Of a DNA stretch of 64,000 bases, positions 854 to 29,381 are shown piece after piece (position 1 is the stretch's first letter; each line of letters starts with the position of its first letter). This DNA comes from Mycoplasma sp. CAG:956 (GTDB lineage: Bacteria; Bacillota_I; Bacilli_A; RF39; UBA660). The stretch is taken from assembly GCA_000433475.1 (NCBI GenBank), contig HF993109.1, positions 133,712 to 197,711 of the forward strand. The letters are read 5' to 3'. The notes below the pieces were generated by a model. It was not told where the DNA came from, made no database searches, and worked only from the letters and a program-made list of their open reading frames with translations. Both the position numbers and the translations under genes were made by a program.

Positions 854-1088
854 AGATAAAGATTTCTTAAACAAAGAACAAGATAATATTATGTTACTAG
901 ATATGGTTAAAATTAAACATAAACCTGCCGTCTTAAATACATTCAACAGTACCATAGTAAGTGTGATTGCTAGACACCAAGATTGGGAAAAACTGGATAA
1001 AAAAACTCTAAAGATAAGAATGGAAGCCAAGACTTCCAATATGGTTGATACAAACTCGCTTCTAAGTTACTATAGTAATAGTAAAAAT
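602..1088 (+). repeat. 2 x 247-bp tandem duplication (unit length not divisible by 3) spanning the ORF1/ORF2 junction
   Basis: nt 605-841 and 852-1088 encode the same 80 aa (SEDKDFLNKEQDN...LLSYYSNSKN) in two different frames; ~93 percent nt identity; copy offset 247 nt. Confidence 0.85.
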
Positions 1089-4000
1089 AAATATGAATTA
1101 GCCGAATTTAATAAAGAAACTAATGGTAAACCTAAGTTGTTATTTGTTATGGATAAATTAAACGAAGGAGCCCATTTAAAAGGAGTAAAGGGTATTGTCT
1201 GGTTACGTCCATTAAGTGTTGATTCAAGAATACTATTCTATCAACAGTTAGGTAGATGTATTCATTCTTATCCTGATGGTCATATATTTACCGAAGAAGA
1301 ACGCCCAATAGTAATGGATTTAGTTAATAATATAAATACCGTTAACTTAAAAAGAAATCAATCTCCAATAAATGATTTAGAAGATTTGAAAACTATTATA
1401 GCTTGGATAAATGATAATGGTGGTAAACTTCCTAATAAGAATAGTAATATTTTAGAAGAAAAGAATTATGGTTTAAAATTAGATGTAATTTTATATCGCT
1501 ATATTAAATATTTTAATAATCAAGAAGAATTAAATAGCGTAAAAAATAAAAAAGTAATAGAGGAAATCTTAAGATTAGGTTCCCTAATTGACTTATGGAA
1601 TATCAAAATAGACGAACCGACAAGACAAAGAAAAGAAAAAGAATCAGAAAGAGATGAAGAAAAATTTTTACAAGGATTTTTACAAGTCGAAAGTTCATTC
1701 CGTGATTTTGTTGATTCAAAAGAAGAAATAGATGAGTTGGCATCGCCTGAGTCTACTTTCGATAAGATATTTAATTATTTGACTATTTTAAAAAATCAAG
1801 GGGTTGACATAAATAGTATTAGTAAGTGTGATAAATTGAAGGTAATTAAAACTGATGGTAATTATTTTCTTCAAATAATAAAAAATAAAAGAAAAAAAGG
1901 AAATGGTAAAACAGTTATTATAAATGAAGAAGAATATAAGGAACCGAGCTTAATTTGGATAGGAAGCTATGTCTATGCCTTTAGACAAGGAAAAAATAAT
2001 AAGGATTCAAAAAGTCCAGACTTAGAGGCTGACCAAATTAGTAGATTAAAGACTTTGAATTTCATTTTTGATTGGGAAGTAGATCCTATATTGAATCCAA
2101 GAAGTTTTGAAGATTATATCTTACTCTTAAAAGAGATGCAAAATTCTAAAGATAAGACTGGATATGATATAAACAATATTAAATTTTTAGAAGTAGTAAG
2201 AATATCAAAAATAAATGGTGAGTATGAGTTTGAATATTTTGCTAATAGAGAAGAAGCAAGAAAAAAATATGGCGAAGATGAAGAAATAATTGGAATAGGA
2301 CGCATTATTAATTGCTTTAAAAGAGGAAAAAATATAAATGAAAAAGATTTAACTGCTGAACAGATAAACGAGTTAAGAAATACTGGTTTAATGGTTGTAA
2401 CTGAAAAAGAAAGAGACCATATAATGATGCCCAAAAATTTTGATGATTATGTTAAAGTTTTACAGGCTTTGCAAAATGCTAAAGATAAGACAGGTTGTGA
2501 TATAAATAATATTAAATTTTTAGAGGTAGTAAGAATAATCAAAATAAATGATGAGTATGAGTTTGAATATTTTGCTAATAGAGAAGAAGCAAGAAAAAAA
2601 CATGGTGAAGATGTAGAAATAATTGGGGTAGGCGATGTTATTTATTGGTTCAAAAAAGGAAAAAGCCGTAGTGGAAAAGATTTAACTGTTGAACAGATAA
2701 ATTGGTTAAGAGATATTGGCTTGATGGTTGTAACTGAAAAAGAAAGAGACCCTATAATGAAACCCCAAAATTTTGAAGATTATGTCTTACTCTTAAAAGA
2801 GATGCAAAATTCCAAAGATAAGATTGACCGTGATATAAATGATATTAATAAGAGAAAAGTAGTAAGAATAACCAAAATAAACGATGGGTATGAATTTGAA
2901 TATTTTGCTAATAAAGAAGAAGCAAGAAAAAAATATGGCGAAGACGAAGAAATAATTGGAATAGGAGTAGTTATTAATTATTTTAAAAGAGGAAAAAGCA
3001 GTAGTGGTCAAAAAGATTTAACTACTGAACAGATAAAGCAGTTAAGAGATATTGGCTTGATGGTTGTAACTGAAAAAGAAAGAGATTCTATAATGAAGCC
3101 AAAATATTTTGAAGATTATGTCTTACTTTTAAAAGAAATGCAAAATACCAAAGATAAGACAAGTCGTGATATAAATAGTATTAAATTTTCAGAAGTAGTG
3201 AAAATAACAAAAATAAATGATGATTATGAATTTGAATATTTTGCTAATAGAGAAGAAGCCAGAAAAAAATATGGTAACGATGTAGAAATAATTGGAATAG
3301 GCCTAATTATTTATTGCTTTAAAAGAGGAAAAAGCAGTAGTGGTAAAAAAGATTTAACTGTTGAGCAGATAAAGCAGTTAAGAGATACTGGCTTGATGGT
3401 TGTAACAGAAAACGAAAGAGACCCTCTAATAGAGCCTAAAAGTTTTGATGACTACCTTCTGCTTTTAAAAGAAATGAAAAAGTTCAGAGATAAGACAGGT
3501 CGTGATATAAATGATTTTAAACCAAAAGAAGTAGTGAAAATAACAAAAATAAATGATGAGTATGAGTTTGAATATTTTGCTAATAGTGAAGAAGCAAGAA
3601 AAAAATATGGTGAAGATGTAGAAATAATTGGAATAGGCCTAATTATTTATTGGCTTAAAAAAGGAAAACTTAGCAATCGCGGAAGAGATTTAACTGTTGA
3701 GCAGATAGAAGGGTTAAGAGATATTGGTCTAAGGGTTGTAACCGAAAAAGAAAGAGACACTATAATGGAGCCTAAAAGTTTTGAAGATTATGTTGAACTT
3801 TTAAAAGAATTACAAGAAAATAAAATTGACATCAATGTAATTAAAGTCACAGATAAAATAAGAATTATAAAAAATGATATCGGTTATGATTTTCAAATTG
3901 TTCATAAAAGCAAAGTAATGGTAAATGGTAAAACGACAATTGCTAATAAAGAAGCATATTTTCAGAATGATTTAATGGCGATAGGGATAAAAATTAATCA

Positions 4001-4355
4001 CTTAAGGAAAGGCAAATATTCTGATAAAACATACCTAACCATAGACCAAATGAAAATATTATTAAGCATAGGCTTTAAATTTAATAAAGGAATAGAAGAT
4101 AAAATATATAAACAAGAAATATGTAAGAATCATAATATTGATTTAAAAATAAATGATAAAATAATTGAAAGAATATCAAAAATAGAATTAATAAGTAAGA
4201 TTAACTTTTTAGAAGCAAGTAATTTAGAACTAGTAGATAATGCCGGTAAACTAATAGATATATTTAGTATGAGTAGTATTGATATTCAAGATAACTATGG
4301 TATATCTTTAGAGTCTATAATAAATACTTATGGAAAAGGAGAAACGAGAAAATGA
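840..4355 (+). CDS. Giant HA-like tandem-repeat protein (1171 aa), no signal peptide, conserved family C-terminal module
   Basis: ATG start; ~7 tandem ~112-aa modules (..P.SFEDY..LLKEMQN.KDKTG.DIN.IKF.EVV.I.KIN.EYEFEYFANREEARKKYGEDEEIIGIG.II..FKRGK....KDLT.EQI..LR..GLMVVTEKERD); second half of module resembles HA domain; C-terminus ...ISKIELISKINFL...GKLIDIFSMSSIDI..NYGISLESIINTYG shared with three neighbours. Confidence 0.75.
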   Translation: MLSTEDKDFLNKEQDNIMLLDMVKIKHKPAVLNTFNSTIVSVIARHQDWEKLDKKTLKIRMEAKTSNMVDTNSLLSYYSNSKNKYELAEFNKETNGKPKLLFVMDKLNEGAHLKGVKGIVWLRPLSVDSRILFYQQLGRCIHSYPDGHIFTEEERPIVMDLVNNINTVNLKRNQSPINDLEDLKTIIAWINDNGGKLPNKNSNILEEKNYGLKLDVILYRYIKYFNNQEELNSVKNKKVIEEILRLGSLIDLWNIKIDEPTRQRKEKESERDEEKFLQGFLQVESSFRDFVDSKEEIDELASPESTFDKIFNYLTILKNQGVDINSISKCDKLKVIKTDGNYFLQIIKNKRKKGNGKTVIINEEEYKEPSLIWIGSYVYAFRQGKNNKDSKSPDLEADQISRLKTLNFIFDWEVDPILNPRSFEDYILLLKEMQNSKDKTGYDINNIKFLEVVRISKINGEYEFEYFANREEARKKYGEDEEIIGIGRIINCFKRGKNINEKDLTAEQINELRNTGLMVVTEKERDHIMMPKNFDDYVKVLQALQNAKDKTGCDINNIKFLEVVRIIKINDEYEFEYFANREEARKKHGEDVEIIGVGDVIYWFKKGKSRSGKDLTVEQINWLRDIGLMVVTEKERDPIMKPQNFEDYVLLLKEMQNSKDKIDRDINDINKRKVVRITKINDGYEFEYFANKEEARKKYGEDEEIIGIGVVINYFKRGKSSSGQKDLTTEQIKQLRDIGLMVVTEKERDSIMKPKYFEDYVLLLKEMQNTKDKTSRDINSIKFSEVVKITKINDDYEFEYFANREEARKKYGNDVEIIGIGLIIYCFKRGKSSSGKKDLTVEQIKQLRDTGLMVVTENERDPLIEPKSFDDYLLLLKEMKKFRDKTGRDINDFKPKEVVKITKINDEYEFEYFANSEEARKKYGEDVEIIGIGLIIYWLKKGKLSNRGRDLTVEQIEGLRDIGLRVVTEKERDTIMEPKSFEDYVELLKELQENKIDINVIKVTDKIRIIKNDIGYDFQIVHKSKVMVNGKTTIANKEAYFQNDLMAIGIKINHLRKGKYSDKTYLTIDQMKILLSIGFKFNKGIEDKIYKQEICKNHNIDLKINDKIIERISKIELISKINFLEASNLELVDNAGKLIDIFSMSSIDIQDNYGISLESIINTYGKGETRK
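1750..4100 (+). repeat. Array of ~7 tandem 333-339-bp (111-113-aa) coding repeats; five central copies (approx 2088-3771) near-identical, flanking copies degenerate
   Basis: Repeat starts at ~2088, 2421, 2754, 3090, 3426, 3772 read directly from sequence. Confidence 0.85.
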
Positions 4356-5378: not shown

Positions 5379-6530
5379 ATGCCTAAAATTAATCAACCAG
5401 CCTCTAAAATCAGAATGTCATTTGATGAATGGTTTCCTGTAGCCCAAAAATATTATCAAGAACATAAAAATCTCTTAGTACCCCTAGATTATGAAACTAA
5501 AGATGGTAAAAAGTTAGGAAAATGGATAGCCAGTAAAAGAAAAGATTATGCTAATAATTTATTATCCTTAGAAAAAATTAAGGCTTTAGATAGTATTGGT
5601 ATGGTTTGGAGTATCAACGAAAAGAAATGGAATGATATGTTTAATCTTTTAATAGAGTACAAAAATATCCATGGTAATTTAGATATATCATCTTCATATG
5701 TAACCTTAAGTTGTGTAACTTTAGGCATTTGGCTAAGAGAACAACAAAATTCCTATCTTAGGGGTACCCTAAAAGAAGAAAGACAAGAAAAGTTAGAAAG
5801 TATTGGCATTATTTGGCAAACCAATGAAACAAAATGGTATGAAATGTATAAATATGCTAAAGAATATCAAAAAGAACATGGCACTTTAATAACTACCAAG
5901 AATTATATTACTCCAAATGGTAAGTCTCTAACTGAATGGTTACAAGCCCAACGTAGTGGCTACCACAAGAAAACATTAAAACCCGAAAGAATAAAACTTC
6001 TTGAAGCCATTGGCATGGTCTGGAGTATAAATCAAAGTTATACTTGGCATGATATGTATTTACTTGCCCAAGAATATCAAAAAGAACATGGCAATCTAAT
6101 TATTCCTAGAAATTATAAAAGTAAAAATGGCTTAAATTTAGGCTACTGGCTTTATAAAGAAAAACTAAAATATCGTCAAGGAAAATTAGCACCAGAAAAA
6201 ATTATTGCCTTAGAACACATTGGTATCGTTTGGACTAACAAAATTAATCATGACATTTCTAAATATTTAAGAAAACTAAAAGAATCTGACAATCCAATTA
6301 TTATCGATGAAAAAATTAATGCGGATATTTTAAATAATATTTCTTTAATCGAATTAGAAAGTAAAATTAAATATATAACCGATATGGGAGCCCTACCAAT
6401 AGATAACACTGGTCGTTTAATAGATATATTTACTATAAGTAATACTGATATGGAAGAAAGATACGGCATATCTTTAGAAGCCATGATTGAATCATTTGAA
6501 GTAAGCAGTGCTAGAAAACTATATTATTAA
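5379..6530 (+). CDS. HA (helicase-associated) domain repeat protein, 5 tandem HA repeats plus family C-terminal module
   Basis: RBS AAAGGA; repeats of W..(F/Y)....Y...H.NLLVP..Y.T.DGK.LG.WI...R..Y....L..E.I..L.SIGMVW; C-term ...NISLIELESKIKYI...G.LIDIFTISNTDMEERYGISLEAMIESF. Confidence 0.75.
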   Translation: MPKINQPASKIRMSFDEWFPVAQKYYQEHKNLLVPLDYETKDGKKLGKWIASKRKDYANNLLSLEKIKALDSIGMVWSINEKKWNDMFNLLIEYKNIHGNLDISSSYVTLSCVTLGIWLREQQNSYLRGTLKEERQEKLESIGIIWQTNETKWYEMYKYAKEYQKEHGTLITTKNYITPNGKSLTEWLQAQRSGYHKKTLKPERIKLLEAIGMVWSINQSYTWHDMYLLAQEYQKEHGNLIIPRNYKSKNGLNLGYWLYKEKLKYRQGKLAPEKIIALEHIGIVWTNKINHDISKYLRKLKESDNPIIIDEKINADILNNISLIELESKIKYITDMGALPIDNTGRLIDIFTISNTDMEERYGISLEAMIESFEVSSARKLYY

Positions 6531-9459: not shown

Positions 9460-10857
9460 ATGATTAAAAAAAGTATAAGAAAAAATCCAAAGGATAATTT
9501 TGATGAGTGGTTTAAAATAGCAGCATATTATTATAAAAAACATAACAATCTATTAGTGCCCGCTAACTATTTAACCGAGGATGGTAAAAAATTAGGAGAG
9601 TGGATAATTTATATTCGAACTAAATATAATTCTGATGACCAAAAAATAACTAAAGAGCAAAAAGAAATGCTAGATTCTATTGGTATGGTTTGGAACTTAT
9701 ATGATTATAGATGGCAAGAAAGATTTAATCAAGTTAAAAAGTTTTATGATGAATATGGAACCATAGAACTTTTACCAACCTATCAGGGAAAAGAAGGCTT
9801 AAAACTCTTAAACTGGATAAAATTTCAAAGAAATATTTACTATAGTAAAAGTAAGAAACCAAAAGATCTAGAAAAAATTGCTAAATTAGAAAGTATTGGC
9901 GTCATTTGTCATCATAAAGATGAAATGTGGGTTTCCATGTATAACTTAGCTTTCTTATATTATAAGAAAAACAATAATCTATTGATTCCTGCTTGTTATG
10001 AAACTACTCTTGGTAAAAAACTTGGTATCTGGATAAGAAATCAAAGAAAAAGTTATTCTGATGGTAATTTATCTGAAATTAAAATCGCAGCCTTGGAATC
10101 TATTGGCATGGTTTGGCATGTTTATGAAAATAAGTGGAACCTAATGTATAAAGAAGCCTTAACTTATTATCAAAAATATCATACTATCAGTATTTATAAA
10201 GACTATAAACCAACTTATGTAACCAAAGAAGAACTATGTCAGTGGTTAGCAACTCAAAAGATATATTATAAACAACATAAAAATTTAACTCTTGAGCAAT
10301 ATAAGAAACTAAATTTAATTAAAATAGACTTTGACTATCAAGAAGATAATTGGAATTATATGTATAACTTGGCAACTAATTACTATTTAGAAAATGGTCA
10401 TTTACTAATTCCTAGAACCTTTAAATCTGAAGGTAAGAATTTAGGTATTTGGTTAGAATCACAACGTCAACATTACCAAAAACAAAAACTTTCTGAAGCA
10501 AAAATTCTTCTTTTAGAATCTATCGGTATCATTTGGCAACCGAGAAAAAATCTTTCATCTATATATAATTATTTAGATGAAAATTATCCTTTAATTGATA
10601 AACGACTTAACAGGGATGTTTTAAACCGTATTTCCTTACTAGAACTAATTGCTAAAATTAATTATTTAATTTGTTGTAAACATACTTCCTTTATTTATAG
10701 TAATGGGCTTTTAAAAGATATATTTTCTATGAGTAGTATAGCTATCAAAAATGATCCTAACTATGGTATTTCCTTAGAAGAAATAATTAATACCTATGGT
10801 AAAGAATATATTTTAAAATATAATAAAAATATGAAAGGTAAAACTTTAGACTTATAA
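9460..10857 (+). CDS. HA (helicase-associated) domain repeat protein, 6 tandem HA repeats plus family C-terminal module
   Basis: RBS AAAGGGGA; HA repeats (..W...Y......Y.......L.P..Y.T..GKKLG.WI..QR..Y......E.KI..LESIGMVW); C-term LNRISLLELIAKINYL...NGLLKDIFSMSSIAIKNDPNYGISLEEIINTYG. Confidence 0.75.
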   Translation: MIKKSIRKNPKDNFDEWFKIAAYYYKKHNNLLVPANYLTEDGKKLGEWIIYIRTKYNSDDQKITKEQKEMLDSIGMVWNLYDYRWQERFNQVKKFYDEYGTIELLPTYQGKEGLKLLNWIKFQRNIYYSKSKKPKDLEKIAKLESIGVICHHKDEMWVSMYNLAFLYYKKNNNLLIPACYETTLGKKLGIWIRNQRKSYSDGNLSEIKIAALESIGMVWHVYENKWNLMYKEALTYYQKYHTISIYKDYKPTYVTKEELCQWLATQKIYYKQHKNLTLEQYKKLNLIKIDFDYQEDNWNYMYNLATNYYLENGHLLIPRTFKSEGKNLGIWLESQRQHYQKQKLSEAKILLLESIGIIWQPRKNLSSIYNYLDENYPLIDKRLNRDVLNRISLLELIAKINYLICCKHTSFIYSNGLLKDIFSMSSIAIKNDPNYGISLEEIINTYGKEYILKYNKNMKGKTLDL

Positions 10858-10948: not shown

Positions 10949-13561
10949 ATGGAATATGGTATCGATTATATATTAAAATTACCAACTGAAGATATAAAAA
11001 CTTATTTAGAAAGTGCTAGTATAATAGATATCCTAGCCATCTTAGAAAATATCAAAAAACGTAAGGAAATGGATTATGCTTCTTTAAACAAATTAGAAAA
11101 ATTAGAAGAGCAAATTAAAATAAATAAAAATTACCTTACTGATATCGATAAACGTATAAATTTTGCTACTAAAACTAATGCTCCTAAAGTAGAAGTTGAT
11201 TTATTATGGGAAGAATATAGTCGTTATGATGCCATTATCGATGATTTAACTAGTAAAAAAGAACAATTAATTCAAGGATTTAATGATAAAAAACAAGCCA
11301 TTTTTACTTTAGCATGGAATATGATCTTAGAAGCTCCTGTATCTAAATTAGAAGATTACCGAAACAGCCTTATCACATGGCTAAAAAATAGAATAGAAGC
11401 TATTGAAACTAATAAGAGCAACAGGGAAATAACTACCAATACACTTTTAGAAGATAGAAACTTTACTAAAGAAGATCTAACTGTTAAATCAATTGATGCC
11501 GAGATTAAAGAAATGGAATCTCAAGTTCTAAATCATGAACTTATTTTAAATGAAGAAACTATTGGGAAGATTAAATCATTAAGAGCTAAAAAAGAATCAT
11601 TAGAACATGAAACTTTTACTTTTGTTTGCACAGAAAAGATAAAAACGTCTCTAAAAACTATTAGTAATGATATAACTAAATTACAGATGGAATTATCTAA
11701 CATTATTCAAATGGACATTGAATCTTTAAAAGAAATGATTTTAAGTGATTATGCTCAAGGCAAAGAAGAAATAAAATTAGCCAACTACGTTCGTATTTAT
11801 CGCTCTTATTTAGAAAATATTAGTAAAGTACCTCTTACTTTAAAAGCAGCATATCGTAATATTTGCCTAAACTATGCTAATCTTTTAAATTCCATAGAAA
11901 ATCCTAGCTTTGAAGGGGAAACTCTTAATGATTTAGATATTAAATTAAAAGAATTACATAATTATATAAAAACTTTAGAACAATATAAAACTAAAAAAAA
12001 TGATAAAACTACCGAAACTAAGTTCTTATATACTACTGTAAGACAACAAGGCTTATTTGAACTTCCTTTCTCTAAAGATAAATGGTTATCTTATTTTGGT
12101 AAATATTTTGAATCCTTACTTAACGAAATTAAACCATTAGAAGAAAAGAATAAAGAATATATCTCTTTAACAACAGTTAGTCTAAAGAGTAAAAAGATAG
12201 AAGAAGAATTAGACTTATATCGTAAAGACTTAAGAAGTATGTTAGATGAACTATATAACAAAGTTTTATCCATATATTTAAAGAATAATTTATATATTAA
12301 TGTTAATGTTTATGATTATCGTGATACCGAAACATTTACTAAGTACTTAGAATATCAAACTATTAGTATCGATAAAGAAATAGCAAGTGTTAAAACTACT
12401 ATTGAAGGATTAAATAGTAAGAAGAGTAATATCTTAGAATTAATTAATGATACTTATAGTAAGATTGATACTGATATTAAAGCTAAATTAAATAGTATTT
12501 TTAATGGAACTTATGTAAAAGAAGAAGAACAAGAAGAAAAACCTCATCATTTCTTTGCAAGTCCTACTACATTAGAACCTAGTTATAATGATACTTTTGA
12601 TGATACAACTAGTAATTTAGAACCTATAAGTAAGGTAGAAGAAGAACCAGAAGTATCTGAATTTGATTCTTTCTTTGCTACTGATATTCCTTTTAAAGAT
12701 GATGATACAGAAGAAAATAATGAACTACCAGAAGAAGCTCCTACAAGACCTAAACATGAATTAGAACCAGATGAAGTTCCTTTGAAAGAAAAAGAAATCA
12801 AAGATGAACAAAGTAACAATTCTAGCATAACCACCTTTAATCCCGATGATATCTTTGGTAGTACATCAAATACTTTAGATAATGCTTTAGAAGAAGAGCA
12901 AAAACAAGAACCAGTAGTTTCAAAAGAAGAAGATGATACGGTAATTTCTTTTGATAGTGAAGATATAGCATCAACAAAGGCCTCAGAAAAAAAAGAAGAG
13001 GCTAGTGAAGCTAGTGCAGTATCTGATGATATAAACTTTGATGATGCTATATCATCATCTGATAGAGAAGCTTTTAAAGAACTACTTGAACCTCAAAAAG
13101 TGCCAGATTTTAATACCATAATTAATACTCCTGAACCAAGTACTAAAGAAGAAAAAAACAAAATCAAAAAAAGAGGACTTAAAGTAATTAAACAAGAACC
13201 AGTAGTTTCTAAAAAAATGTCAAAGAAAACACCAGAGGTAGTTTCAAAAACAACTGTTAAAACGGATGCTACTGAGATTAAAGAACGAATCGAAAACAGC
13301 CAAAATGATAGACAAAGTAAAAATGTACCACCACTATTTAATCCGGCTAGTGCTAGTGATGTAAAAAGTGAATACAATGATACTAATGCTCCAATTGATT
13401 TAAATGCTTTTCTAAATGGCAACCTTTCAAATCCAACAGAAAAACAAGAAACTAAAGAAGTTGATGATAAAACTAAAAAATTAACTTTAAGTCAAGATGA
13501 TAATATAAATTTGATGGACTTTTTAAACCAAATTGAAAATAACGATGCTAAAGTAGCTTAA
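10949..13561 (+). CDS. Hypothetical 870-aa coiled-coil protein with long acidic Ser/Glu/Pro-rich disordered C-terminal half
   Basis: RBS AAGGAG; heptad-like K/E/L-rich N-terminal 520 aa; C-terminal ~350 aa dominated by E, D, S, P, T. Confidence 0.7.
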   Translation: MEYGIDYILKLPTEDIKTYLESASIIDILAILENIKKRKEMDYASLNKLEKLEEQIKINKNYLTDIDKRINFATKTNAPKVEVDLLWEEYSRYDAIIDDLTSKKEQLIQGFNDKKQAIFTLAWNMILEAPVSKLEDYRNSLITWLKNRIEAIETNKSNREITTNTLLEDRNFTKEDLTVKSIDAEIKEMESQVLNHELILNEETIGKIKSLRAKKESLEHETFTFVCTEKIKTSLKTISNDITKLQMELSNIIQMDIESLKEMILSDYAQGKEEIKLANYVRIYRSYLENISKVPLTLKAAYRNICLNYANLLNSIENPSFEGETLNDLDIKLKELHNYIKTLEQYKTKKNDKTTETKFLYTTVRQQGLFELPFSKDKWLSYFGKYFESLLNEIKPLEEKNKEYISLTTVSLKSKKIEEELDLYRKDLRSMLDELYNKVLSIYLKNNLYINVNVYDYRDTETFTKYLEYQTISIDKEIASVKTTIEGLNSKKSNILELINDTYSKIDTDIKAKLNSIFNGTYVKEEEQEEKPHHFFASPTTLEPSYNDTFDDTTSNLEPISKVEEEPEVSEFDSFFATDIPFKDDDTEENNELPEEAPTRPKHELEPDEVPLKEKEIKDEQSNNSSITTFNPDDIFGSTSNTLDNALEEEQKQEPVVSKEEDDTVISFDSEDIASTKASEKKEEASEASAVSDDINFDDAISSSDREAFKELLEPQKVPDFNTIINTPEPSTKEEKNKIKKRGLKVIKQEPVVSKKMSKKTPEVVSKTTVKTDATEIKERIENSQNDRQSKNVPPLFNPASASDVKSEYNDTNAPIDLNAFLNGNLSNPTEKQETKEVDDKTKKLTLSQDDNINLMDFLNQIENNDAKVA

Positions 13562-14920: not shown

Positions 14921-17900
14921 ATGAATAATAAATTAAGTATTGAAGAATTTAGAAAATATAAAGAACAATTACAAAAAATAATTGATGACTTTAAAAATAA
15001 TTATGAAGTAATGAAAAATAATCCTTCTTATAATGAAGCCCAAGAAGAAGAAAAAAGCATTGCTGCCTATTTTAAAATTGAACAAGATCTTTTTAGTCAT
15101 GATTTAAGTGCTATCCCATACGAAGAGTATCAAAACCTATCAATTATGGCAACAGACCAAGAAGAATTAGATCTGTCAAATAGCCATGCTAATATTGATT
15201 TTTCACTCATCGAGGTATTTGGACACTGCAATTTTAAGGGGTGTAACTTAAAAAATATTGAAAAAGTAAATGATAGAATAAGTCCTAAGTATTTAGATAC
15301 TGATATCTTTTTAAAAAATAAAGATTTATTTTTATCTAGTAGTTTTCCCGAATGGTTCCAAGAAAAATGGTACTATGGTGATTTATCAATCGAAGATGTA
15401 ACTAAATTAGATAAGACTTTAATAGAAGAACTTATCAGTAATCCGCAAATTTTATATCATCTTAGTAATAGTCATGATGTTTATATAATTAGAAATTTAG
15501 GCTTAAAAAAGGCTCTTTCTATCTATAATTATTCTAAAGAAGAATATCAAGTCTTAAATAACCTTATATTTAATCTATCAAGTGCTAATTTTAATAAGAT
15601 AGACCAATCATTAACTGATCCCGAAGCAATTATTAAAAATATTTATCAAATCTCTGTTGATGATATATTAGCGGTAGATAATGAGTATTTTAAAAGAAGA
15701 TTAAAGCCAGAAAGTTATCATCAAAAATTTGTTGAGGCTAATGAAAATATTTTTAAAACTAAGAGTAACTTACCAGAAGATGTTAAAAATAGATATTATG
15801 AACACAATCTTAGTGTAAATGATGTTTTAAATAACTATGAGGAATTCAAAAATATTCCCTTATTAGGATTTATGAAATCAATAACAAGTAGTTCTAAAGA
15901 TATAATTTGTAATATTAATTTAGCTTATGGTAGTATGGCTTTTCAACAAGTTTATCCATTATATCCCAAATTAATTAAACATTTAAATGATGCTGATATT
16001 TTTTTAAGTTTTAATAAAAATTATGATGTAAAAACTGGTTTAAGAGATGCCGTTACTAATTGCTTAGAATGCTTTAAAGAAAAAAAAGTACCCGATTGGG
16101 CAAATGAAATGTTTACAAGTATTGTTCCTAAATATTACGATATAAGCAATTTGAAAAAATATAATCCCCAAATTTGCTTATATGATCCCTTGCAACGCAA
16201 AATAGTAGAAACTAACAACGTTGATAATGCAATCAAATTTAATGACGAAACACATTTTTTTGATTATGTGGACGATAGAAGTCCCGTAAATGCCTTTATC
16301 TTATATTTAAAAAGAAGTAATATTGACTTTAAAGAATTTGCTACTTATCAAGAATTTCGTGCCTTTATGGCAGAGCATTTAGGAAAAATGCGAGAAAAAA
16401 ATTACTTTAAAGATTATGATTCCTACGCCTTTATTCCGACCTATTCCAAAGCTTTTTACCAAGATTTTCGTCATATCTTTATTGATTTAAATAGCAATGG
16501 AACCTTACAAAAAGCCTTCTATGATAATAGATTAACACCTGATTATATAAGGCTTTATCCTAAGTGTTTTAAAGATTTAGAACACGAAGATTTAAGATAT
16601 GTTATAAGTAGCGATAATAAAAAATTTAAAGAAGTATTTATTCCTTTTTATACCAGTCATTTTGGTAATTTAGCATTATTAGATATTTTTAAAAAATATG
16701 CTTATAACAATTATCTAGTTGATTCCCTTGACCAAATAAAGTTAGATGAGGGTATGACTAAGGAACAAATTGATAAAAAAATAAGAAGCATTACTTATAG
16801 TAATATTTTAAAATACAGCCAGTTTTATTGGAAAAATTTAAAAAGTGATCCTTTATTTGCTAAAGAATATCCAGAACTTATTCTATCCGAAGATGAAATA
16901 ATGACACCAAGTGGCATAGTCCAAAATGACATTATCGATAAATTTTACAGAGGTAAATTAACTTTTGATGATATATTTACTTGTAAACCGCTAGCTTTAG
17001 CCTTACAACATAAAAATATCAATGTTGCCATTAGAAACAATAGTACTTATTATTTTGGCAATGGTATGAACGAAGCTCAAATTTATCTAAAACAGTTAGG
17101 CCAAGAAGACTTTCTAAAATTATGTAGTACTTTTGGTAAATTCTTAGATAATTCCATTAACAGAATTAAATTTTCTAATGATATTTCTTATTCCGAATTA
17201 TGTAAACAATTAGAAGAACTAACTGTTAAAAAAGCAACTTATGAAGGTATTCCTTTTAATGAAAGCAATGCCCCTTCCTTCTTAGTACAACAGCATCCTG
17301 AACTTTTCTTGGATGAATCTGCTCCTTGGGGGTTAAAAATGGCTTTTGAGGATGGTATTGATTTTTACTCTTTAGCAGCTAACTATAATGAGACTTTCCC
17401 TTTCTTAAAAGATAAAGCGGCTGTAAGTTTCTTTATCAGAAAAGATAAAGGACATAAAGGTGCCATTGCTAATTATTTTAATCTTTTTGGTAATATAGAT
17501 GCCTTAAAACTTGCTGGTAAAAAGCCCGATATTGTAACTAAAATGATTCATCATGATAAGGTTTACAATTTAAGAACCTGGTATTTAAAAACAGGTGGTA
17601 AATTTATTCCTGATCCAGTTGTTATGGAAAATTTTCCCCTAGATGATGTTGATAAATTCTTAACAGCAGGATTTAAATGGAGCAATTTAATGCGTTTATC
17701 AGAATTTACTAAAAATGATGAAACCAAAGAAGCCTTGCTAAAAATTGCTTATGTTTTTGGTACTTTTGATAATGATGATAGGGGCTATAAAAAAGTATAT
17801 GACTTATTAACTGAATTGCCGACTAAGTTTAAAGAAGATATTGGTTATATCTTTGATAACTTAGATAATGCTCTAGATAGTAATGCTAATTTTAATGTTT

Positions 17901-19513
17901 ATTTTCCTAATAATGATTTGGCAACAAATTTAATATTAACTGCTAATTCTGAAAAATTTCCGATTACTAGACCTAACTTTTTTAAACAGTTATATCGCCA
18001 TAATGCTGATAATACTTATACTTTAACAATTAATCAGCAAAAATATCCTAAAACAAGCCTAGTTATTCATGAAATTCTAAGTAGTTTTAAAGAATTTCAT
18101 TTAATAAATGCTACCAATGCTCATCAATTATTTGGTAACTTTGATTTTCAATATAATCCTGACTTTTATAATTTTTTCATAACTAATTTAGATACAATAT
18201 TAAATGATACTGAAAATTCTAGGTATTTGGGTTCTATTCAAAAACAATTTAAAGATATTAAAACAATAAATTCTAATCGTCACCTAACTTGGCAGATGGC
18301 AGTTAACTATGTTTTAGAAAATAAGTTTACCAATGTTAATCTTGGTAACGAACAAATGGCTGCTGTTTCATCTATTGCAGGCTATACCCAAGAACAATTT
18401 GAAAAACTACAAGAAATTTATGAATATAGTAAAAGAAGAGTAAAAAGTAGTATTCCTCATATCGAAGAAAGAACTGATGATTACACTTATGAGACCTTAA
18501 GATTAGATGATCCATTAGGTCTTGCTATTGGTACCCTTACTGATTGCTGTCAGGAAATAGATGATGCTGCCGAAGTTTGTATGGAACACTCAATGACAAG
18601 TTCCGATGGTCGTATTTTTGTCATAAAAGATAAAGAAAATAATATTGTAGCTCAAAGTTGGGTATGGCGAAATCAAAATGTTTTATGTTTTGATAATATA
18701 GAAATTCCTCACAAAGCCTTTGAACGAGCTATCCAAAAAAAGATAAATTTAACCCAAGTAGTTTATGATATATATAAACAAGCTGCTAATATTTTATTAG
18801 AAAAAGATAAAGAAATGTATAAGTCTTTATTGGAAAAAGGAAAGATAACAAAAGAAGAATATGATGCCCTATGTTTATCAAAAGTAACTGTTGGATTAGG
18901 TTATAATGATATTGCCGAAGAATTAGAAAAACAAGCAACACTTGATAATGGTATTCTTACTCATCCTCTTGATTATGATGCTCCAGTAAAGTTAAATCGT
19001 AGTCTTTATACCAATGACTCTAAAACCCAATATATTATTGCTGGCAACCAAGATCGTCTAAATAGAAGCCCAATGGAAACTAAAGCTTTATATACCGATG
19101 ACTTTAAAATTTATGATGATACTAACTTCCAAGAAAAAGATTATTTACATTTAATGAAATTAGAACTATTAACTGAAAATGGTAGCGATGATTTGAACTA
19201 TGCATTAACTAAATCAAGAAAAGATGAAAGCTTCCTAACTATTTTAGCTCGTTGTTATAATTTAGATCCTAAAACAACCCAAGTAATTTATAATAGTAAT
19301 ATGTCTATAATCTATGATATAAAAGATGATACCTTAAGAATAGGTAAAATTCTTTATAATTCAAATAACTATGATGTAGCTTATTACCAAATAAAAATAG
19401 CTATAGAAAAAATAGCCCAAGATAAAAATATAGATTTATCATTATCAGATAAAAATACCCAAGATTTATATAACAAAATAAATCTTAATAATGATATAAA
19501 GAGTAGGAGTTAA
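14921..19513 (+). CDS. Giant (1530 aa) cytoplasmic hypothetical protein
   Basis: RBS TAGGAG; no signal peptide or TM; Cys cluster GTLTDCCQEIDDAAEVCMEHSMTS near aa 1190; no family recognised. Confidence 0.75.
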   Translation: MNNKLSIEEFRKYKEQLQKIIDDFKNNYEVMKNNPSYNEAQEEEKSIAAYFKIEQDLFSHDLSAIPYEEYQNLSIMATDQEELDLSNSHANIDFSLIEVFGHCNFKGCNLKNIEKVNDRISPKYLDTDIFLKNKDLFLSSSFPEWFQEKWYYGDLSIEDVTKLDKTLIEELISNPQILYHLSNSHDVYIIRNLGLKKALSIYNYSKEEYQVLNNLIFNLSSANFNKIDQSLTDPEAIIKNIYQISVDDILAVDNEYFKRRLKPESYHQKFVEANENIFKTKSNLPEDVKNRYYEHNLSVNDVLNNYEEFKNIPLLGFMKSITSSSKDIICNINLAYGSMAFQQVYPLYPKLIKHLNDADIFLSFNKNYDVKTGLRDAVTNCLECFKEKKVPDWANEMFTSIVPKYYDISNLKKYNPQICLYDPLQRKIVETNNVDNAIKFNDETHFFDYVDDRSPVNAFILYLKRSNIDFKEFATYQEFRAFMAEHLGKMREKNYFKDYDSYAFIPTYSKAFYQDFRHIFIDLNSNGTLQKAFYDNRLTPDYIRLYPKCFKDLEHEDLRYVISSDNKKFKEVFIPFYTSHFGNLALLDIFKKYAYNNYLVDSLDQIKLDEGMTKEQIDKKIRSITYSNILKYSQFYWKNLKSDPLFAKEYPELILSEDEIMTPSGIVQNDIIDKFYRGKLTFDDIFTCKPLALALQHKNINVAIRNNSTYYFGNGMNEAQIYLKQLGQEDFLKLCSTFGKFLDNSINRIKFSNDISYSELCKQLEELTVKKATYEGIPFNESNAPSFLVQQHPELFLDESAPWGLKMAFEDGIDFYSLAANYNETFPFLKDKAAVSFFIRKDKGHKGAIANYFNLFGNIDALKLAGKKPDIVTKMIHHDKVYNLRTWYLKTGGKFIPDPVVMENFPLDDVDKFLTAGFKWSNLMRLSEFTKNDETKEALLKIAYVFGTFDNDDRGYKKVYDLLTELPTKFKEDIGYIFDNLDNALDSNANFNVYFPNNDLATNLILTANSEKFPITRPNFFKQLYRHNADNTYTLTINQQKYPKTSLVIHEILSSFKEFHLINATNAHQLFGNFDFQYNPDFYNFFITNLDTILNDTENSRYLGSIQKQFKDIKTINSNRHLTWQMAVNYVLENKFTNVNLGNEQMAAVSSIAGYTQEQFEKLQEIYEYSKRRVKSSIPHIEERTDDYTYETLRLDDPLGLAIGTLTDCCQEIDDAAEVCMEHSMTSSDGRIFVIKDKENNIVAQSWVWRNQNVLCFDNIEIPHKAFERAIQKKINLTQVVYDIYKQAANILLEKDKEMYKSLLEKGKITKEEYDALCLSKVTVGLGYNDIAEELEKQATLDNGILTHPLDYDAPVKLNRSLYTNDSKTQYIIAGNQDRLNRSPMETKALYTDDFKIYDDTNFQEKDYLHLMKLELLTENGSDDLNYALTKSRKDESFLTILARCYNLDPKTTQVIYNSNMSIIYDIKDDTLRIGKILYNSNNYDVAYYQIKIAIEKIAQDKNIDLSLSDKNTQDLYNKINLNNDIKSRS

Positions 19514-19515
19514 CT

Positions 19516-20496
19516 ATGTTAGATAATAATTTAGATACTATAATTAATAAAACTTATATTATCGATAAAACCCCTTTAAATGAAGAAAAAATAAAAAAAG
19601 TAATAATAAGTCTAAAAGACAGTATTATTTCTAGTAAAGAAGAAATTACAGCGGCAAATGCTATAGATATAAAAAATCATAATGGCAATATAATTGACTT
19701 TTCTATTATTGAAAGAATATTTAAAAATATTAATAATGAAAAAATTTATTATGGTAATGTAACAACCCTAAAAAAAGATAATAATAAGTATTATGGCAAA
19801 CAATACTTTGATAAAGGCAATGTCTTAATTTTTAATACAGGCAATCCTTATATTATCTTAGAAATATTTTTAAAAAACTTTTTAGCAGGTAATACTTCTA
19901 TTATTGTTACTACTAATTATGCATATGGCTTAAATAAATTATTAGAAACCATTATTAAAACTGTGTTAGAAACAAATAATCTATCACCAGACTTTATTAA
20001 CTTACTTACAACTGATGCCCCCGAAGAATTATTAAAAAATAATTATGCCAATATTGATTTAGTAATAGCACTTGGTAATAAATCTTTCCAAAATAAGATT
20101 ACTAACTATTCTAAAGTACCTGTTTTACTTAGTGGCTATGAAACATTTGATTTATATATTGATGAAATGTTAGATAAAACTTTTCTAACAAAGATAATTA
20201 ATCTTCATTTACCAATGCACGTTTATATTAATAAAAATTTAAAAATTGATTTACGAGGTAGTATGTTAGTAGATGGAGTAGAGGAAGCTATTATGCAAAT
20301 TAATTATAATGGTAATGGTTATAGTAGTGCTATATTTACTAGTAATGATGATAATGCCGCTAATTTTATTAGTAAAGTTAAGTCCAAGATAGTTACGGTT
20401 AATACTAGTCCTACTATTGAAAGACTAATGGATATACAAGTTAAGGATTTAGTCTTAGAAAAGACCGTTATTTATCCTAATAAAAAGAAAAACTAG
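19516..20496 (+). CDS. Shortened gamma-glutamyl-phosphate reductase (ProA)-like protein lacking the ALDH catalytic Cys (probable pseudoenzyme)
   Basis: 326 aa vs ~415 for ProA; by-eye alignment, recalling the E. coli ProA sequence from memory: LDDAI.HIN.HG..HSDAILT.D...A.RFV..VDS.AVYVNASTRF vs ours VEEAIMQINYNGNGYSSAIFTSNDDNAANFISKVKSKIVTVNTSPTIE; position of the ProA ..STCNTVE.. catalytic Cys reads HLPMHVYINKN; start 3 nt after upstream stop. Confidence 0.5.
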   Translation: MLDNNLDTIINKTYIIDKTPLNEEKIKKVIISLKDSIISSKEEITAANAIDIKNHNGNIIDFSIIERIFKNINNEKIYYGNVTTLKKDNNKYYGKQYFDKGNVLIFNTGNPYIILEIFLKNFLAGNTSIIVTTNYAYGLNKLLETIIKTVLETNNLSPDFINLLTTDAPEELLKNNYANIDLVIALGNKSFQNKITNYSKVPVLLSGYETFDLYIDEMLDKTFLTKIINLHLPMHVYINKNLKIDLRGSMLVDGVEEAIMQINYNGNGYSSAIFTSNDDNAANFISKVKSKIVTVNTSPTIERLMDIQVKDLVLEKTVIYPNKKKN

Positions 20497-26828: not shown

Positions 26829-29381
26829 ATGGAAAAAAAGAATAAAGGCTTTACAATCCCTGAACTTTTGGCTGTTATTGTTATAATTGGCATCTTAGTA
26901 ACCATAGCATCCGCAAGTTATAATGGAATTAGTAAAACCTTAAAAGAAAAAACATATCAAAATAAAATAAACTTGATAAAAACTAAAGCCGTTGAATATG
27001 CAACCGATAATAATGTTGATGCTGAAACTATAAGTGTTGCAAAATTATTAAATGAAGGCTATCTAGAATTGGAAAATGATACGGAAGCCAATGAAAAACT
27101 AAATAATCCTAACGGTGGTTACTTAGATTGCTACCAAGTAAGCATTAATAAAAATATCGATGATTATGATATCAATGTTACTAGTGATGATACTTGTAAT
27201 ATGGCAAATCTTGATAATGCTTCTAGTAAAATTACTATTTATGCTTATGAGACAGAAAAGGTAAATAATAATGTTCAGATTAATTATGAAGCCTTAGGTA
27301 GTAATAACAATACTAAATGGACAAATAAAGACGTTTACTTATTTATTGATCCTAAAACTTTACCAGTTGAAGAACTAAGTAATGTTAAAATAACTTGGAC
27401 TCTTAATAATGAAATAATTACTAAAAATGGTAATTTAACTGATAGTGTTTCTAGTAATTTAGATTATGCCAATATCTATCAGGTAGAAACTAATTACTTA
27501 TATAATGCTATGGTAACTGCTCAGATTGAAATCGATGGTAAAAGATATAGTCAAAAAGCCAGTGTTAAGATTGATAAAGAAAAACCTAGTGTAGCTCTTG
27601 ATTTTAATGCTAGTTATGAAAAAATGGATGAACAAACGAGAAGAGCTACTAAAATTATTAATTTTAATGGTTCTGATGGTAGTGGTTCTGGTATTGGTCT
27701 TACTAAAGAAAATAATACTGTAGTTGGTTATTTCCTTACTGATGATGCCACTTACGTACCAAGTGCTAGTGACTTTAATATAACAACTGAGGCTCATCAA
27801 ACTAATGCTTATGAAAATGGTACTTATTATGGTTATACCATCGATGCTGTAGGTAATATTTCTAATCCTACTAGTATCAATATTGACAATGTTACTTACG
27901 ACTTACCAGTTTGTTTATTACCAAATGCTAATAAAACTTGGACTAACAAAGATTATACTTATACCTATGGCTGTAAAAATGATAAAGGAACTGGTTGTTC
28001 TTATGAATTAATAAGTAAAACTGTAACTACTGATACCGATACTTTACCAGATTTTGAATGGAAAGCAACTGATAATACTGGTAACTCTGTTAATTGTGAA
28101 TCTAAAGGCTTATCTGTTAAAGTTGATAAAACCGCACCAACTTGTAATATTACTGTTATAAGTGGTACCTTAGGACGTAATAATTGGTATACTACTGATG
28201 TTAAGTTAGCCCTAAATTACTCTGATAATTTAAGTGGCATAGCAGCATATGGCATTACAACCAGTACTAATGCCGACTTTAATTCAGAAAAAGAAACAAC
28301 CCTAAATTTTGATACTCCAGGTATAACTTACTATGGTTATGTTAAGGATAATGCTGGTAATGTAGGTACTTGTAATATTACTGTTAAAAGATTAACAACA
28401 CCACCAACTTGTAATCTTTCTCTAAGTGGTACTAAAGGAAATAACAATTGGTATCGTTCTAATGTTGCTGTTACTATGCAAACAAATGGTTATGGTATAA
28501 GTGAAAAGAAAATATACTCACCAAACGGTGCAGTAAATAATGATTATTATACGTTAACTTATGATACTAATAATGCTACTATTACTGGTAATGTGACTAA
28601 TGAAGCTGGTTTAACTGGTACTTGCTCTACAATTATAAAAAGAGATGTTACCCCGCCAGTTGCAACCTTAAGAATGAAAACTACTCATTATTGTTACCAT
28701 ACTATAAATGTAACTACATCTGGTGGTTGTGGTGATAGTAGTAGTTCTAGAGATATTGATTGTACAACTTGGGATAATAAAGGCTTTAATAACAGTTCAA
28801 CTTTAAATAGTTATTTAAGTAGTAATGTTGGCAGTTATAAATCTTATTCTTATAAAGGTAAAACTGAGGGAGATAATGTATCTTATAACCAAGCCGAATT
28901 AGTTTGCTCTGATAATATGACTACTAATGTAAGTTATAAAATAGGTAATAAATCGGGAGCTATTTATGATTTAGATAGCGATTCTAATGCCAGAAGTAAA
29001 ACTAACTATACTATGACCGGTACTTGTACCGATGAAGCTGGTAACCAAGCAAGCTCATCTAAAAACTTTTATCGTTATGAAGATGAACAATACTGTGAAA
29101 AAACCCATACAGAATATACTTGCGATAGTACTCATATCGAAGTTACTAACTGTGATGATGGTAAAAACTATACAACATCTAGTGGTAATAACTGTGGTGG
29201 TGCCGATTCTAACGGTGAATACGGTTCCAACGGTGATGGCTCATATTATGATTGCGGTTGGGGTAGCGGTGGCTCCGGTAGTACCAGTGATTGTGGACAC
29301 GTTAATGAAGTTTGTGACCACGAAACTAGTTACGAAGTATCCGATGGCTTTTATAAATGTGCCGATAATAAATGGAGATAA
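26829..29381 (+). CDS. Large (850 aa) type IV pilin-like / pseudopilin-like protein with class III signal peptide and repeated Ig-like modules
   Basis: RBS AAAGAAAGGA; N-terminus KG/FTIPELLAVIVIIGILVTIASASY (prepilin cleavage G, Glu+5, hydrophobic helix); three ~100-aa modules T.PTCN.(T/S)...G..G.NNWY...V.......D..SG......T......G.TGTC..I.KR; Gly/Ser/Cys-rich C-tail. Confidence 0.65.
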   Translation: MEKKNKGFTIPELLAVIVIIGILVTIASASYNGISKTLKEKTYQNKINLIKTKAVEYATDNNVDAETISVAKLLNEGYLELENDTEANEKLNNPNGGYLDCYQVSINKNIDDYDINVTSDDTCNMANLDNASSKITIYAYETEKVNNNVQINYEALGSNNNTKWTNKDVYLFIDPKTLPVEELSNVKITWTLNNEIITKNGNLTDSVSSNLDYANIYQVETNYLYNAMVTAQIEIDGKRYSQKASVKIDKEKPSVALDFNASYEKMDEQTRRATKIINFNGSDGSGSGIGLTKENNTVVGYFLTDDATYVPSASDFNITTEAHQTNAYENGTYYGYTIDAVGNISNPTSINIDNVTYDLPVCLLPNANKTWTNKDYTYTYGCKNDKGTGCSYELISKTVTTDTDTLPDFEWKATDNTGNSVNCESKGLSVKVDKTAPTCNITVISGTLGRNNWYTTDVKLALNYSDNLSGIAAYGITTSTNADFNSEKETTLNFDTPGITYYGYVKDNAGNVGTCNITVKRLTTPPTCNLSLSGTKGNNNWYRSNVAVTMQTNGYGISEKKIYSPNGAVNNDYYTLTYDTNNATITGNVTNEAGLTGTCSTIIKRDVTPPVATLRMKTTHYCYHTINVTTSGGCGDSSSSRDIDCTTWDNKGFNNSSTLNSYLSSNVGSYKSYSYKGKTEGDNVSYNQAELVCSDNMTTNVSYKIGNKSGAIYDLDSDSNARSKTNYTMTGTCTDEAGNQASSSKNFYRYEDEQYCEKTHTEYTCDSTHIEVTNCDDGKNYTTSSGNNCGGADSNGEYGSNGDGSYYDCGWGSGGSGSTSDCGHVNEVCDHETSYEVSDGFYKCADNKWR

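Follow-up and report, generated by a model that had tools for sequence, protein, structure and literature searches.

A giant protein of uncultured gut Firmicutes with a predicted tandem GNAT-like C-terminus and a ProA-like partner

The gene pair and the layout of the giant protein

Within the window analysed here, a stretch of 64,000 nucleotides from Mycoplasma sp. CAG:956, an open reading frame with an ATG start and a TAA stop encodes a protein of 1530 residues, as borne out by the ORF list and the translation. This protein has an exact match in the protein collection, where its 90% cluster counts 399 members, and its gene is directly followed by that of a ProA-like protein. The features of the two genes are the following:

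14921..19513, + strand: whole gene, 1530 aa, CCY89221.1 (ORF list and translation)
14939..15091, + strand: N-terminal long helical hairpin, aa 7-57 (AF2 model m98d5cac1d042, helices 7-31 and 39-57, pLDDT 82-94)
15101..15253, + strand: short strand-repeat segment, aa 61-111 (DSSP strands 74-76, 91-93, 98-100 and 109-111)
15302..15436, + strand: copy 1 of a ~45-aa repeat motif, aa 128-172 (picked up by the family HMMs of the remaining copies)
15728..15856, + strand: repeat copy 2, aa 270-312 (cross-detection by family HMMs, as for copies 3 to 5)
16454..16588, + strand: repeat copy 3, aa 512-556
16874..17020, + strand: repeat copy 4, aa 652-700
17276..17416, + strand: repeat copy 5, aa 786-832
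17417..18430, + strand: all-helical middle region and pre-GNAT helical bundle, aa 833-1170, strongly conserved
18464..18940, + strand: predicted GNAT-like domain 1 (C1), aa ~1182-1340
18533..18589, + strand: Cys motif TLTDCCQEIDDAAEVCMEH, aa 1205-1223, a1-a2 loop and helix a2 of C1 (model residues 166-184)
18749..18871, + strand: insertion of a helical hairpin into C1, between a3 and b5, aa 1277-1317 (model helices 238-266 and 272-278)
19028..19495, + strand: predicted GNAT-like domain 2 (C2), aa ~1370-1525, of lower conservation (AF2 topology; Foldseek to two-GNAT proteins)
19516..20496, + strand: partner, 326-aa ProA-like protein, CCY89222.1, annotated as gamma-glutamyl phosphate reductase (NCBIfam proA, 78 bits)

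The description of the product as soluble, devoid of signal peptide and of TM segment, agrees with its hydropathy, since the 19-residue Kyte-Doolittle mean peaks at 1.19 and the N-terminus is charged. A hydrophobic segment is absent in 149 of 151 relatives as well, and the whole family is accordingly predicted from hydropathy to be cytoplasmic. Around the gene, the scan for promoters and terminators was uninformative in this 26% GC DNA (57 found for 63 expected), and the upstream 870-aa orphan and nearby HA-repeat proteins were considered and found to bear no relation to the 1530-aa protein.

In the AF2 model, a helical scaffold of ~1100 residues precedes a C-terminal module of two domains; this scaffold, in which no enzyme-like fold is seen, represents more than 70% of the protein. 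The first-pass annotation had reported the absence of repeats, which has to be revised: the ~45-aa motif is present in five dispersed copies that are mutually detected via family HMMs, with copy 1 following the pattern ..LFLS..FPE.F.EK.YY..L.IEDV, and strands are repeated in the segment spanning aa 61-111. The latter carries the N-terminal motif of highest conservation, DLSxIPFEEW...ANIDF...NFKGCN, with D61, L62, S63, I65, D84, N91, D93, F94 and C108 as invariant residues, and its modelled strands suggest an LRR- or solenoid-like arrangement. Further downstream, the conserved residues of the region covering aa 833-1170 include W887, P897, D911, W920, K941, G947 and F949.

A predicted tandem GNAT-like module and its conserved residues

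By sequence, the protein has no match in Pfam, NCBIfam or the PDB, phmmer and profile hmmsearch against the latter returning chance matches only (E 0.5-2), among which PLK1 and isopullulanase were rejected as relatives. In the same line, the GNAT-clan Pfam HMMs (Acetyltransf_* and FemAB) match neither the 1530-aa protein at E<=0.1, nor any of 22 C1 domains at E<=5, nor any of 30 distant members, while the PADLOC models of anti-phage defence proteins match neither this protein, nor its ProA-like partner, nor two relatives. A third word-index search with full-length alignment gained one protein only, as AT-rich words saturate the candidate list. No clear full-length homologue of known function was thus found in the libraries searched, and the initial statement that the protein cannot be placed in any family stands as far as Pfam, NCBIfam and PDB sequences are concerned. 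It does not stand at the level of the fold, where a Foldseek search with the AlphaFold model matches the C-terminal region to two-GNAT proteins.

According to the model, the final ~350 residues form two domains of the GNAT-type transferase fold, with the core topology b1-a1-a2-b2-b3-b4-a3-b5-a4(-b6) and a likeness to solved GNATs. The two domains are collinear with known two-GNAT structures, Foldseek aligning 300-389 columns to Eis-like proteins, VipF, FemX and 2wpw, and FemA and FemX take the third rank in both structure searches. These matches have weak E-values (2e-4 to 1e-2) and low TM-scores (0.12-0.20), the latter indicating that the inter-domain arrangement differs from that of known two-GNAT structures. 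Besides, profile-profile comparison of C1 with C2 detected no sequence similarity and no signal of duplication. C1 is the part of the family with the highest conservation; its helical insertion, which we take to be reminiscent of the coiled-coil arm of FemA, includes a SHOCT-like short motif (LLEKGKITKEEY), to which SHOCT matches weakly in 14 of 22 members. As this 17-residue match is the sole outcome of a permissive Pfam scan of the 22 C1 domains, it is read as a resemblance between helical hairpins and not as a functional assignment.

The pyrophosphate loop by which GNAT enzymes bind CoA follows the consensus Gln/Arg-x-x-Gly-x-Gly/Ala between b4 and a3 (PMC4964394). Neither domain shows this consensus downstream of beta4, the segments being 'CFDNIEIPHKAFERA' and 'LRIGKILYNSNNYDVAYYQIK': C1 reads IEIPHKAFERA (family consensus IEIPDKAFxR) and C2 reads LYNSNNYDVAYYQ, with a Gly in neither. 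CoA could still be used, because atypical P-loops exist; these are well known, and so are CoA-independent GNAT-fold enzymes such as Fem, L/F-transferase and ATE1 (PMC4964394).

Over 52 sequences, with identity down to ~30%, 31 columns are at least 95% conserved and concentrate in the a1-a2 loop, a2, b3, b4 and b5. The Cys motif TLTDCCQEIDDAAEVCMEH is indeed present, 326 residues before the C-terminus rather than the ~340 given at first, and it does not behave as a unit: within it, only C1209, C1210 and H1223 among its cysteines and histidine are kept family-wide, whereas many members have S, T or D in place of C1220. In the family alignment, C1209, C1210 and Q1211, together with C1256, reach at least 95% conservation and H1223 at least 90%, and further conserved residues are found in QSWxWRN on beta3 and CFDNxE on beta4 of C1. 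In view of the model, the motif would contribute to the conserved lining of the cleft in a GNAT-like domain rather than form a classical multi-Cys metal cluster. The Cys motif followed by a beta-hairpin had suggested a PcfJ-like domain, a candidate that was dropped as it had no HMM support.

The family and its ProA-like partner

The family of the 1530-aa protein comprises thousands of sequence clusters and is covered by no Pfam or NCBIfam model. Its genes occur in tandem arrays of 2-6 copies, and in a six-gene array the paralogues share 61-73% identity in the C-terminal module but only 36-57% in the scaffold. The module is also found fused to different repeat scaffolds (LRR_5, DUF4116), while a paralogous giant family has the N-terminal 260-700 aa in common and ends in a Pol-beta-type NTase.

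As first noticed, the next gene starts 3 nt after the stop, at 19516 (junction TAA-CT-ATG, a 2-nt spacer), and its AGGAG Shine-Dalgarno sequence sits within the last codons of the 1530-aa gene. The link between the two turns out to be much stronger than this spacer implied, since they are neighbours at 46 loci and, at 33 of 41, the ProA-like ORF overlaps the 3' end of the big gene over 11-47 nt. In most of about 45 loci, one big gene goes with one ProA-like gene; the six-copy array has a single one, conserved rather than polymorphic, and in a distant clade it lies directly upstream of the big gene. It is the sole conserved neighbour, the search for a third around the loci having returned nothing beyond ABC transporters of a generic kind (12 loci), recombinases, FtsW and PBP.

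This partner scores 78.4 bits against NCBIfam proA, below the cut-off of 289, lacks about 50 residues around the catalytic-Cys region compared to 1o20, and contains no cysteine at all, with no conserved Cys column among 47 orthologues. Both the equivalog score and the catalytic cysteine that would make it a ProA are therefore wanting. Judging from its sequence, the ProA-like protein has lost the ALDH catalytic cysteine and is demonstrably dead as an enzyme, and its annotation as gamma-glutamyl phosphate reductase in the source record looks like a mis-annotation. The literature searched on giant proteins of RF39, on dupli- or tandem-GNAT proteins and on ProA-like pseudoenzymes yielded no description of this gene pair, which appears to form a hitherto undescribed two-protein system, widespread among uncultured gut Firmicutes.

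Possible function and relation to known systems

We give about even chances to the view that this giant cytoplasmic protein, made of an all-helical scaffold and a C-terminal two-GNAT module, acts as a transferase together with its ProA-like partner. In its favour are the near-invariant columns gathered in a few elements of C1, the fusion of the module to other repeat scaffolds, the ProA-like gene as sole conserved neighbour and the cytoplasmic location predicted for the family. Against it stand the lack of GNAT or Fem HMM matches even at permissive thresholds, the missing CoA P-loop consensus in both domains, and the weak E-values and low TM-scores of the Foldseek matches. The transferase reading derives from the conserved residues that would line the cleft of C1 in which GNAT enzymes bind donor and acceptor, namely those of the Cys motif, of QSWxWRN on beta3 and of CFDNxE on beta4. 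An acyl or aminoacyl group would be moved onto a macromolecule, most likely a protein recruited by the variable N-terminal scaffold, with one conserved cysteine of C1 possibly serving as acyl-thioester carrier or metal ligand. The poorly conserved C2 could have a structural or acceptor-shaping role, as is usual among tandem-GNAT proteins. The translationally coupled proteins would work as a stoichiometric complex, in which the ProA-like subunit would probably serve to bind a nucleotide or acyl-phosphate, to regulate, or as a structural element. A far bolder version, which we regard as very improbable, is a new CoA-independent protein-modifying system where the dead ProA still binds an acyl-phosphate (e.g. 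gamma-glutamyl phosphate) or NADP(H) and gates or presents the donor to the GNAT-like domain, the invariant Cys pair forming a thioester and passing the acyl group to scaffold-selected targets. If true, the pair would amount to a protein gamma-glutamylase or acyl-ligase that is programmed by its scaffold and restricted to gut Firmicutes with reduced genomes.

It is rather unlikely that the protein is a non-catalytic giant scaffold, both GNAT-like domains being pseudoenzymes whose conserved residues bind a ligand or partner in a structural or regulatory hub. The missing P-loop consensus in both domains (PMC4964394), the lack of any GNAT HMM match, the inactive partner and the predominance of helices without enzyme-like fold would fit such a hub, but it hardly accounts for ~30 near-invariant residues that, within one domain, occupy the elements forming the cleft and are kept across clades at ~30% identity. 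Many of these are polar or nucleophilic (C, C, Q, H, S, Q, S, R, N, C, D, N, E), as is typical of active sites, and the atypical or CoA-independent GNAT-fold enzymes cited above (PMC4964394) weaken the P-loop argument. It could also be that the Cys motif chiefly binds a metal (Zn or Fe-S) or acts as a redox switch and in this way defines the function, as the initial emphasis on it implies, given that C1209, C1210, H1223 and C1256 might form a Cys3His site tying the a1-a2 loop to b4. This appears quite improbable: the third Cys of the motif, C1220, is substituted in many members, and the other conserved residues (Q1211, S1224, QSWxWRN, D1258, N1259, E1261) are not metal-ligand-like. A metal with a structural or catalytic part in the cleft of a GNAT domain would, moreover, fit the transferase reading rather than form a true alternative.

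That the family represents polymorphic toxins or effectors, with a constant N-terminal delivery region, exchangeable C-terminal toxins (GNAT here, NTase in the paralogue) and the ProA-like protein as immunity protein or chaperone, is unlikely. The NTase-ended paralogues and the tandem arrays point in this direction, as do the tight overlap with the downstream gene, which recalls toxin-immunity pairs, and the existence of GNAT toxins or effectors such as VipF, itself among the structural matches. However, the protein has no signal peptide, no TM segment and no trafficking domain (LXG/RHS or other), PADLOC gives no match, it is the C-terminal module that shows the highest conservation rather than the highest variability, and no variable immunity gene is seen, the ProA-like gene being non-polymorphic, single in the six-copy array, mostly in a 1:1 ratio elsewhere and upstream in one clade; the NTase paralogue fits only partly.

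The genes of this family rank among the largest in the small genomes of very prevalent uncultured bacteria of the human and animal gut (CAG/RF39-like Bacilli and related Clostridia). The predicted module, with its unusual invariant Cys/His set, offers a concrete and testable entry to gut-microbiome dark matter and frames the questions of the donor, the acceptor and the role of the ProA-like pseudoenzyme, while recognising the partner as a non-ProA protein would correct proline-pathway inferences in the carrier genomes.

Compared to tandem-GNAT acyltransferases (Eis-like 2i00, 3n7z, 2hv2 and 8f51; Legionella VipF 6wqb and 7wx5; clavulanate 2wpw), the protein has the same two consecutive GNAT folds in an in-order alignment, one well conserved and the other degenerate, but it shares neither their sequence nor the CoA P-loop consensus, possesses an invariant CCQ...H...C set and a helical hairpin in domain 1, and has the module attached behind a helical scaffold of 1100 residues, the whole being accompanied by a ProA-like protein. 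The Fem-type and aminoacyl-tRNA-dependent transferases (FemX 1xe4, 1ne9 and 4ii9; FemA 1lrz; ATE1 8tzv) show the same tandem GNAT fold devoid of a CoA-type P-loop; here, in contrast, no FemAB Pfam match is obtained, the insertion lies in the first domain instead of the second, and size and context are very different. As for ProA (NF001221, TIGR00407; PDB 1o20 and 4ghk), the partner aligns over the N-terminal two-thirds and a C-terminal segment, but it differs by its low score, its ~50-residue gap at the catalytic-Cys region, its freedom from cysteine and the absence of an adjoining proB. Finally, Firmicutes polymorphic toxins of the LXG/T7SS type are likewise giant and modular: their C-termini carry alternative enzymatic domains, paralogues stand in tandem and the downstream gene overlaps. 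The giant protein described here, in contrast, revealed no trafficking domain such as LXG or WXG, keeps a conserved C-terminus and is accompanied by a conserved ProA-like partner, of which an array has one copy and whose gene in some cases lies upstream.

The giant gene, its family and its ProA-like neighbour

The giant protein, encoded in a window with a GC content of 22-32%, exactly matches the public record CCY89221.1 ('uncharacterized protein BN817_01125', Mycoplasma sp. CAG:956), which belongs to a 90%-identity cluster of 399 members. The first-pass annotation, which had described a large soluble protein, was largely right except on two points, the repeats and the Cys cluster: the reading frame was recovered by ORF listing and translation, and neither a TM segment nor a signal peptide was detected by hydropathy (highest 19-residue Kyte-Doolittle mean of 1.19), as was the case in 149 of 151 relatives. 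The close spacing to the next gene was also confirmed, the TAA stop being followed by CT and then by the start at 19516, while an AGGAG Shine-Dalgarno sequence for the ProA-like gene sits within the final codons of the giant gene.

840-4355 (+), protein with one weak Helicase-associated (HA, PF03457) repeat
5379-6530 (+), protein of four HA repeats
9460-10857 (+), protein of five HA repeats
10949-13561 (+), 870-aa orphan, coiled-coil-like in its N-terminal half, of low complexity and highly acidic in its C-terminal half
14921-19513 (+), giant gene, 1530 aa
19516-20496 (+), ProA-like partner, 326 aa, CCY89222.1
24745-25152 (+), 135-aa ORF right after ftsK, fragment-sized and, like the partner, related to ProA, here to its C-terminal region
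26829-29381 (+), 850-aa protein, of unusual size for a pilin, with a prepilin cleavage/methylation motif (ComGC/GspG-like) at its N-terminus

The HA-repeat proteins are unrelated to the giant protein. In one other locus (L031), the region upstream of the giant gene retains both recX and the 870-aa orphan, which has no family match.

A word-indexed search, with at most 8000 candidates considered, returned 8-9 relatives, AT-rich words probably saturating its candidate list. When a C-terminal profile was used to search exhaustively by HMM, it gave 3107 representatives of 50%-identity clusters at E<=1e-3 (1735 at E<=1e-10, 457 at E<=1e-30), mostly 1000-1900 aa long among the 150 matches listed. 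Besides, the peptide pattern DLSxIPFEEW occurs in 75 loci of GTDB species representatives, about 50 of which hold full-length homologues of 1400-1870 aa. Nearly all of the 75 loci come from MAGs, many named after rabbit, goat or Hadza human samples, and are labelled as uncultured Bacilli, Mycoplasmatota/Tenericutes or Clostridia, including Clostridium sp. CAG:914 and CAG:571. The giant protein is a member of a real, widespread and uncharacterised family, which represents a sizeable, testable part of gut-microbiome dark matter.

The partner is ProA-derived, yet its score with the NCBIfam proA model, 78 bits, is below the equivalog cut-off of 289. Its residues 104-229 and 251-299 pair with 130-258 and 332-380 of T. 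maritima ProA (1o20), and between these blocks 22 residues replace 74 of 1o20, a segment that presumably carries the ProA catalytic cysteine. The protein contains no cysteine at all, nor was a conserved Cys column found among 47 orthologues; it cannot carry out ALDH-type thiohemiacetal chemistry. Since both cysteine and catalytic segment are missing, the database name 'gamma-glutamyl phosphate reductase' (CCY89222.1) is probably wrong and could mislead proline-pathway reconstructions. The 135-aa ORF, 46% identical to the partner over 70 aa (E 1.7e-6 against NCBIfam proA), could be what is left of a gene, or a small domain that stands alone.

The linkage between the two genes is very strong. 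The ProA-like ORF lies directly 3' of the giant gene in about 40 loci, and in 33 of 41 the two overlap by 11-47 nt when the ORF is counted from its first ATG; in a distant clade (L048, L065, L070-L075) it lies directly upstream instead. In a clustering of all flanking ORFs it is the sole conserved neighbour (46 loci), followed by generic ABC transporters (12 loci). Because adjacency survives this swapped gene order, we infer a functional, probably physical, partnership.

Repeats, GNAT-like domains and conserved residues

The giant protein had been deemed free of repeats and impossible to place. The former is incorrect, since HMMs that represent one copy of a ~45-aa motif across the family find the others where expected (per-domain E 1e-8 to 1e-4); the five dispersed copies, at aa ~128, 270, 512, 652 and 786, approximately follow hP-E-hF-L-x3-5-P-x-E-h-K-x2-F/Y-Y-x3-L-T/S-h-x-D-h. 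The latter holds by sequence, no family match being found in Pfam, NCBIfam, PADLOC or PDB sequences, but not at the level of fold. Two AlphaFold2 models were used, and that of aa 1040-1530 (pLDDT 87.4, pTM 0.79) predicts a helical bundle followed by two complete GNAT topologies, between which profile-profile comparison detected no sequence similarity.

aa ~1182-1340, C1, modelled GNAT-like domain 1
aa 1277-1317, modelled helical hairpin inserted in C1 between alpha3 and beta5, with a SHOCT-like short motif within
aa ~1370-1525, C2, modelled GNAT-like domain 2

Across 52 C1 domains with identities down to ~30%, at least 95% conservation is seen for G1142, R1173, P1179, D1197, G1204, C1209, C1210, Q1211, M1221, S1224, G1230, F1233, Q1245, S1246, W1247, W1249, R1250, N1251, C1256, F1257, D1258, N1259, E1261, P1263, Y1285, D1296, I1309, Y1314, G1325 and G1327, and at least 90% for H1223. 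In the model, CCQ maps to the alpha1-alpha2 loop, MEHS to alpha2, QSWxWRN to beta3 and CFDNxE to beta4, and GxG comes after beta5. In GNAT enzymes the donor/acceptor cleft is built from these elements, with an oxyanion bulge on beta4 (PMC4964394), and the conserved residues would cluster in a cleft of this type. Neither C1 nor C2 has, after beta4, the CoA P-loop consensus of GNAT enzymes, Gln/Arg-x-x-Gly-x-Gly/Ala (PMC4964394).

The Cys motif TLTDCCQEIDDAAEVCMEH is present at aa 1205-1223, 326 residues before the C-terminus rather than the ~340 first proposed. It is no classical Cys cluster, because many members have S, T or D in place of its third cysteine, C1220. C1209, C1210, H1223 and C1256 possibly form a Cys3His site, and CCQ/H/C is a putative, unusual invariant active-site signature.

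Modularity, proposed function and alternatives

The N-terminal 260-700 aa recur in cytoplasmic proteins of 1340-1660 aa that form a paralogous family and have this module and the repeat motifs in common with the giant protein. Their C-terminus is a different conserved region, which bears the nucleotidyltransferase motif GSTGRGTNxxGDGDFDF, of Pol-beta type, and weakly matches NTP_transf_2 and SMODS. No ProA-like gene lies beside these members:

L037, L042, L043, L046, L056, L058, L060 and P0008 (L077:10001-14395), NTase-ending paralogues

Conversely, among 30 distant members the C-terminal module stands behind BspA-type LRR_5 repeats in three (e.g. P0059) and behind DUF4116 repeats in two; there the module consists of the pre-GNAT helices plus C1, and these repeats take the place of the helical scaffold. 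The giant gene also forms tandem arrays, of six copies in L076, three in L019 and two in L012 and L057. In L076:1-24656, six paralogues of 1333-1615 aa, the first truncated by the locus end, precede one ProA-like gene; their C-modules are 61-73% identical versus 36-57% for the scaffolds. The picture is that of a constant, putatively enzymatic module on a diversifying recognition scaffold. A prepilin-type N_methyl gene, cf. the 850-aa prepilin-motif protein of the window, follows just 3' of the ProA-like gene in L076.

We propose, with an even chance of being correct, that the giant protein is a cytoplasmic transferase of the tandem-GNAT type, tethered to its scaffold. C1 would be catalytic and C2 structural; the N-terminal scaffold would pick the macromolecular substrate, and the catalytically dead ProA-like protein would join the complex as an obligate subunit. 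The analysis shows the fold, the pattern of conservation, the modular make-up and the linkage of the genes; catalysis, the nature of donor and acceptor, assembly of the complex and any part played by the cysteines follow by inference.

A fully non-catalytic scaffold is unlikely: the missing P-loop consensus and the dead partner would suit it, but the conservation resembles that of an active site. Atypical P-loops are known among GNATs, as are CoA-independent enzymes of this fold (Fem, L/F-transferase, ATE1). It is rather improbable that the protein is a polymorphic toxin with the ProA-like protein as immunity protein, as the NTase-ending paralogues, the tandem arrays and the overlap of the two genes might suggest; there is no secretion signature, PADLOC gives no match, the conserved part is the C-terminus, and each array has one conserved partner, upstream in some loci. 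It seems quite improbable that a metal or redox site made of cysteines defines the protein; any such role of the cysteines would be compatible with the transferase reading rather than opposed to it.

Comparison with known systems

A literature search found no published description of the giant protein/ProA-like pair. The protein is neither a new fold nor a new principle; what is new is the setting, in which a GNAT-fold module of predicted transferase activity sits in a giant scaffold without precedent and is paired with a pseudo-ProA. As modelled, the protein is a GNAT superfamily member by fold alone, and since it fails both the sequence-family and the P-loop tests it is placed in no named GNAT family. 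In its presumed working, it most resembles the tandem-GNAT acyltransferases Eis and VipF and, likewise, the Fem-type aminoacyl-transferases.
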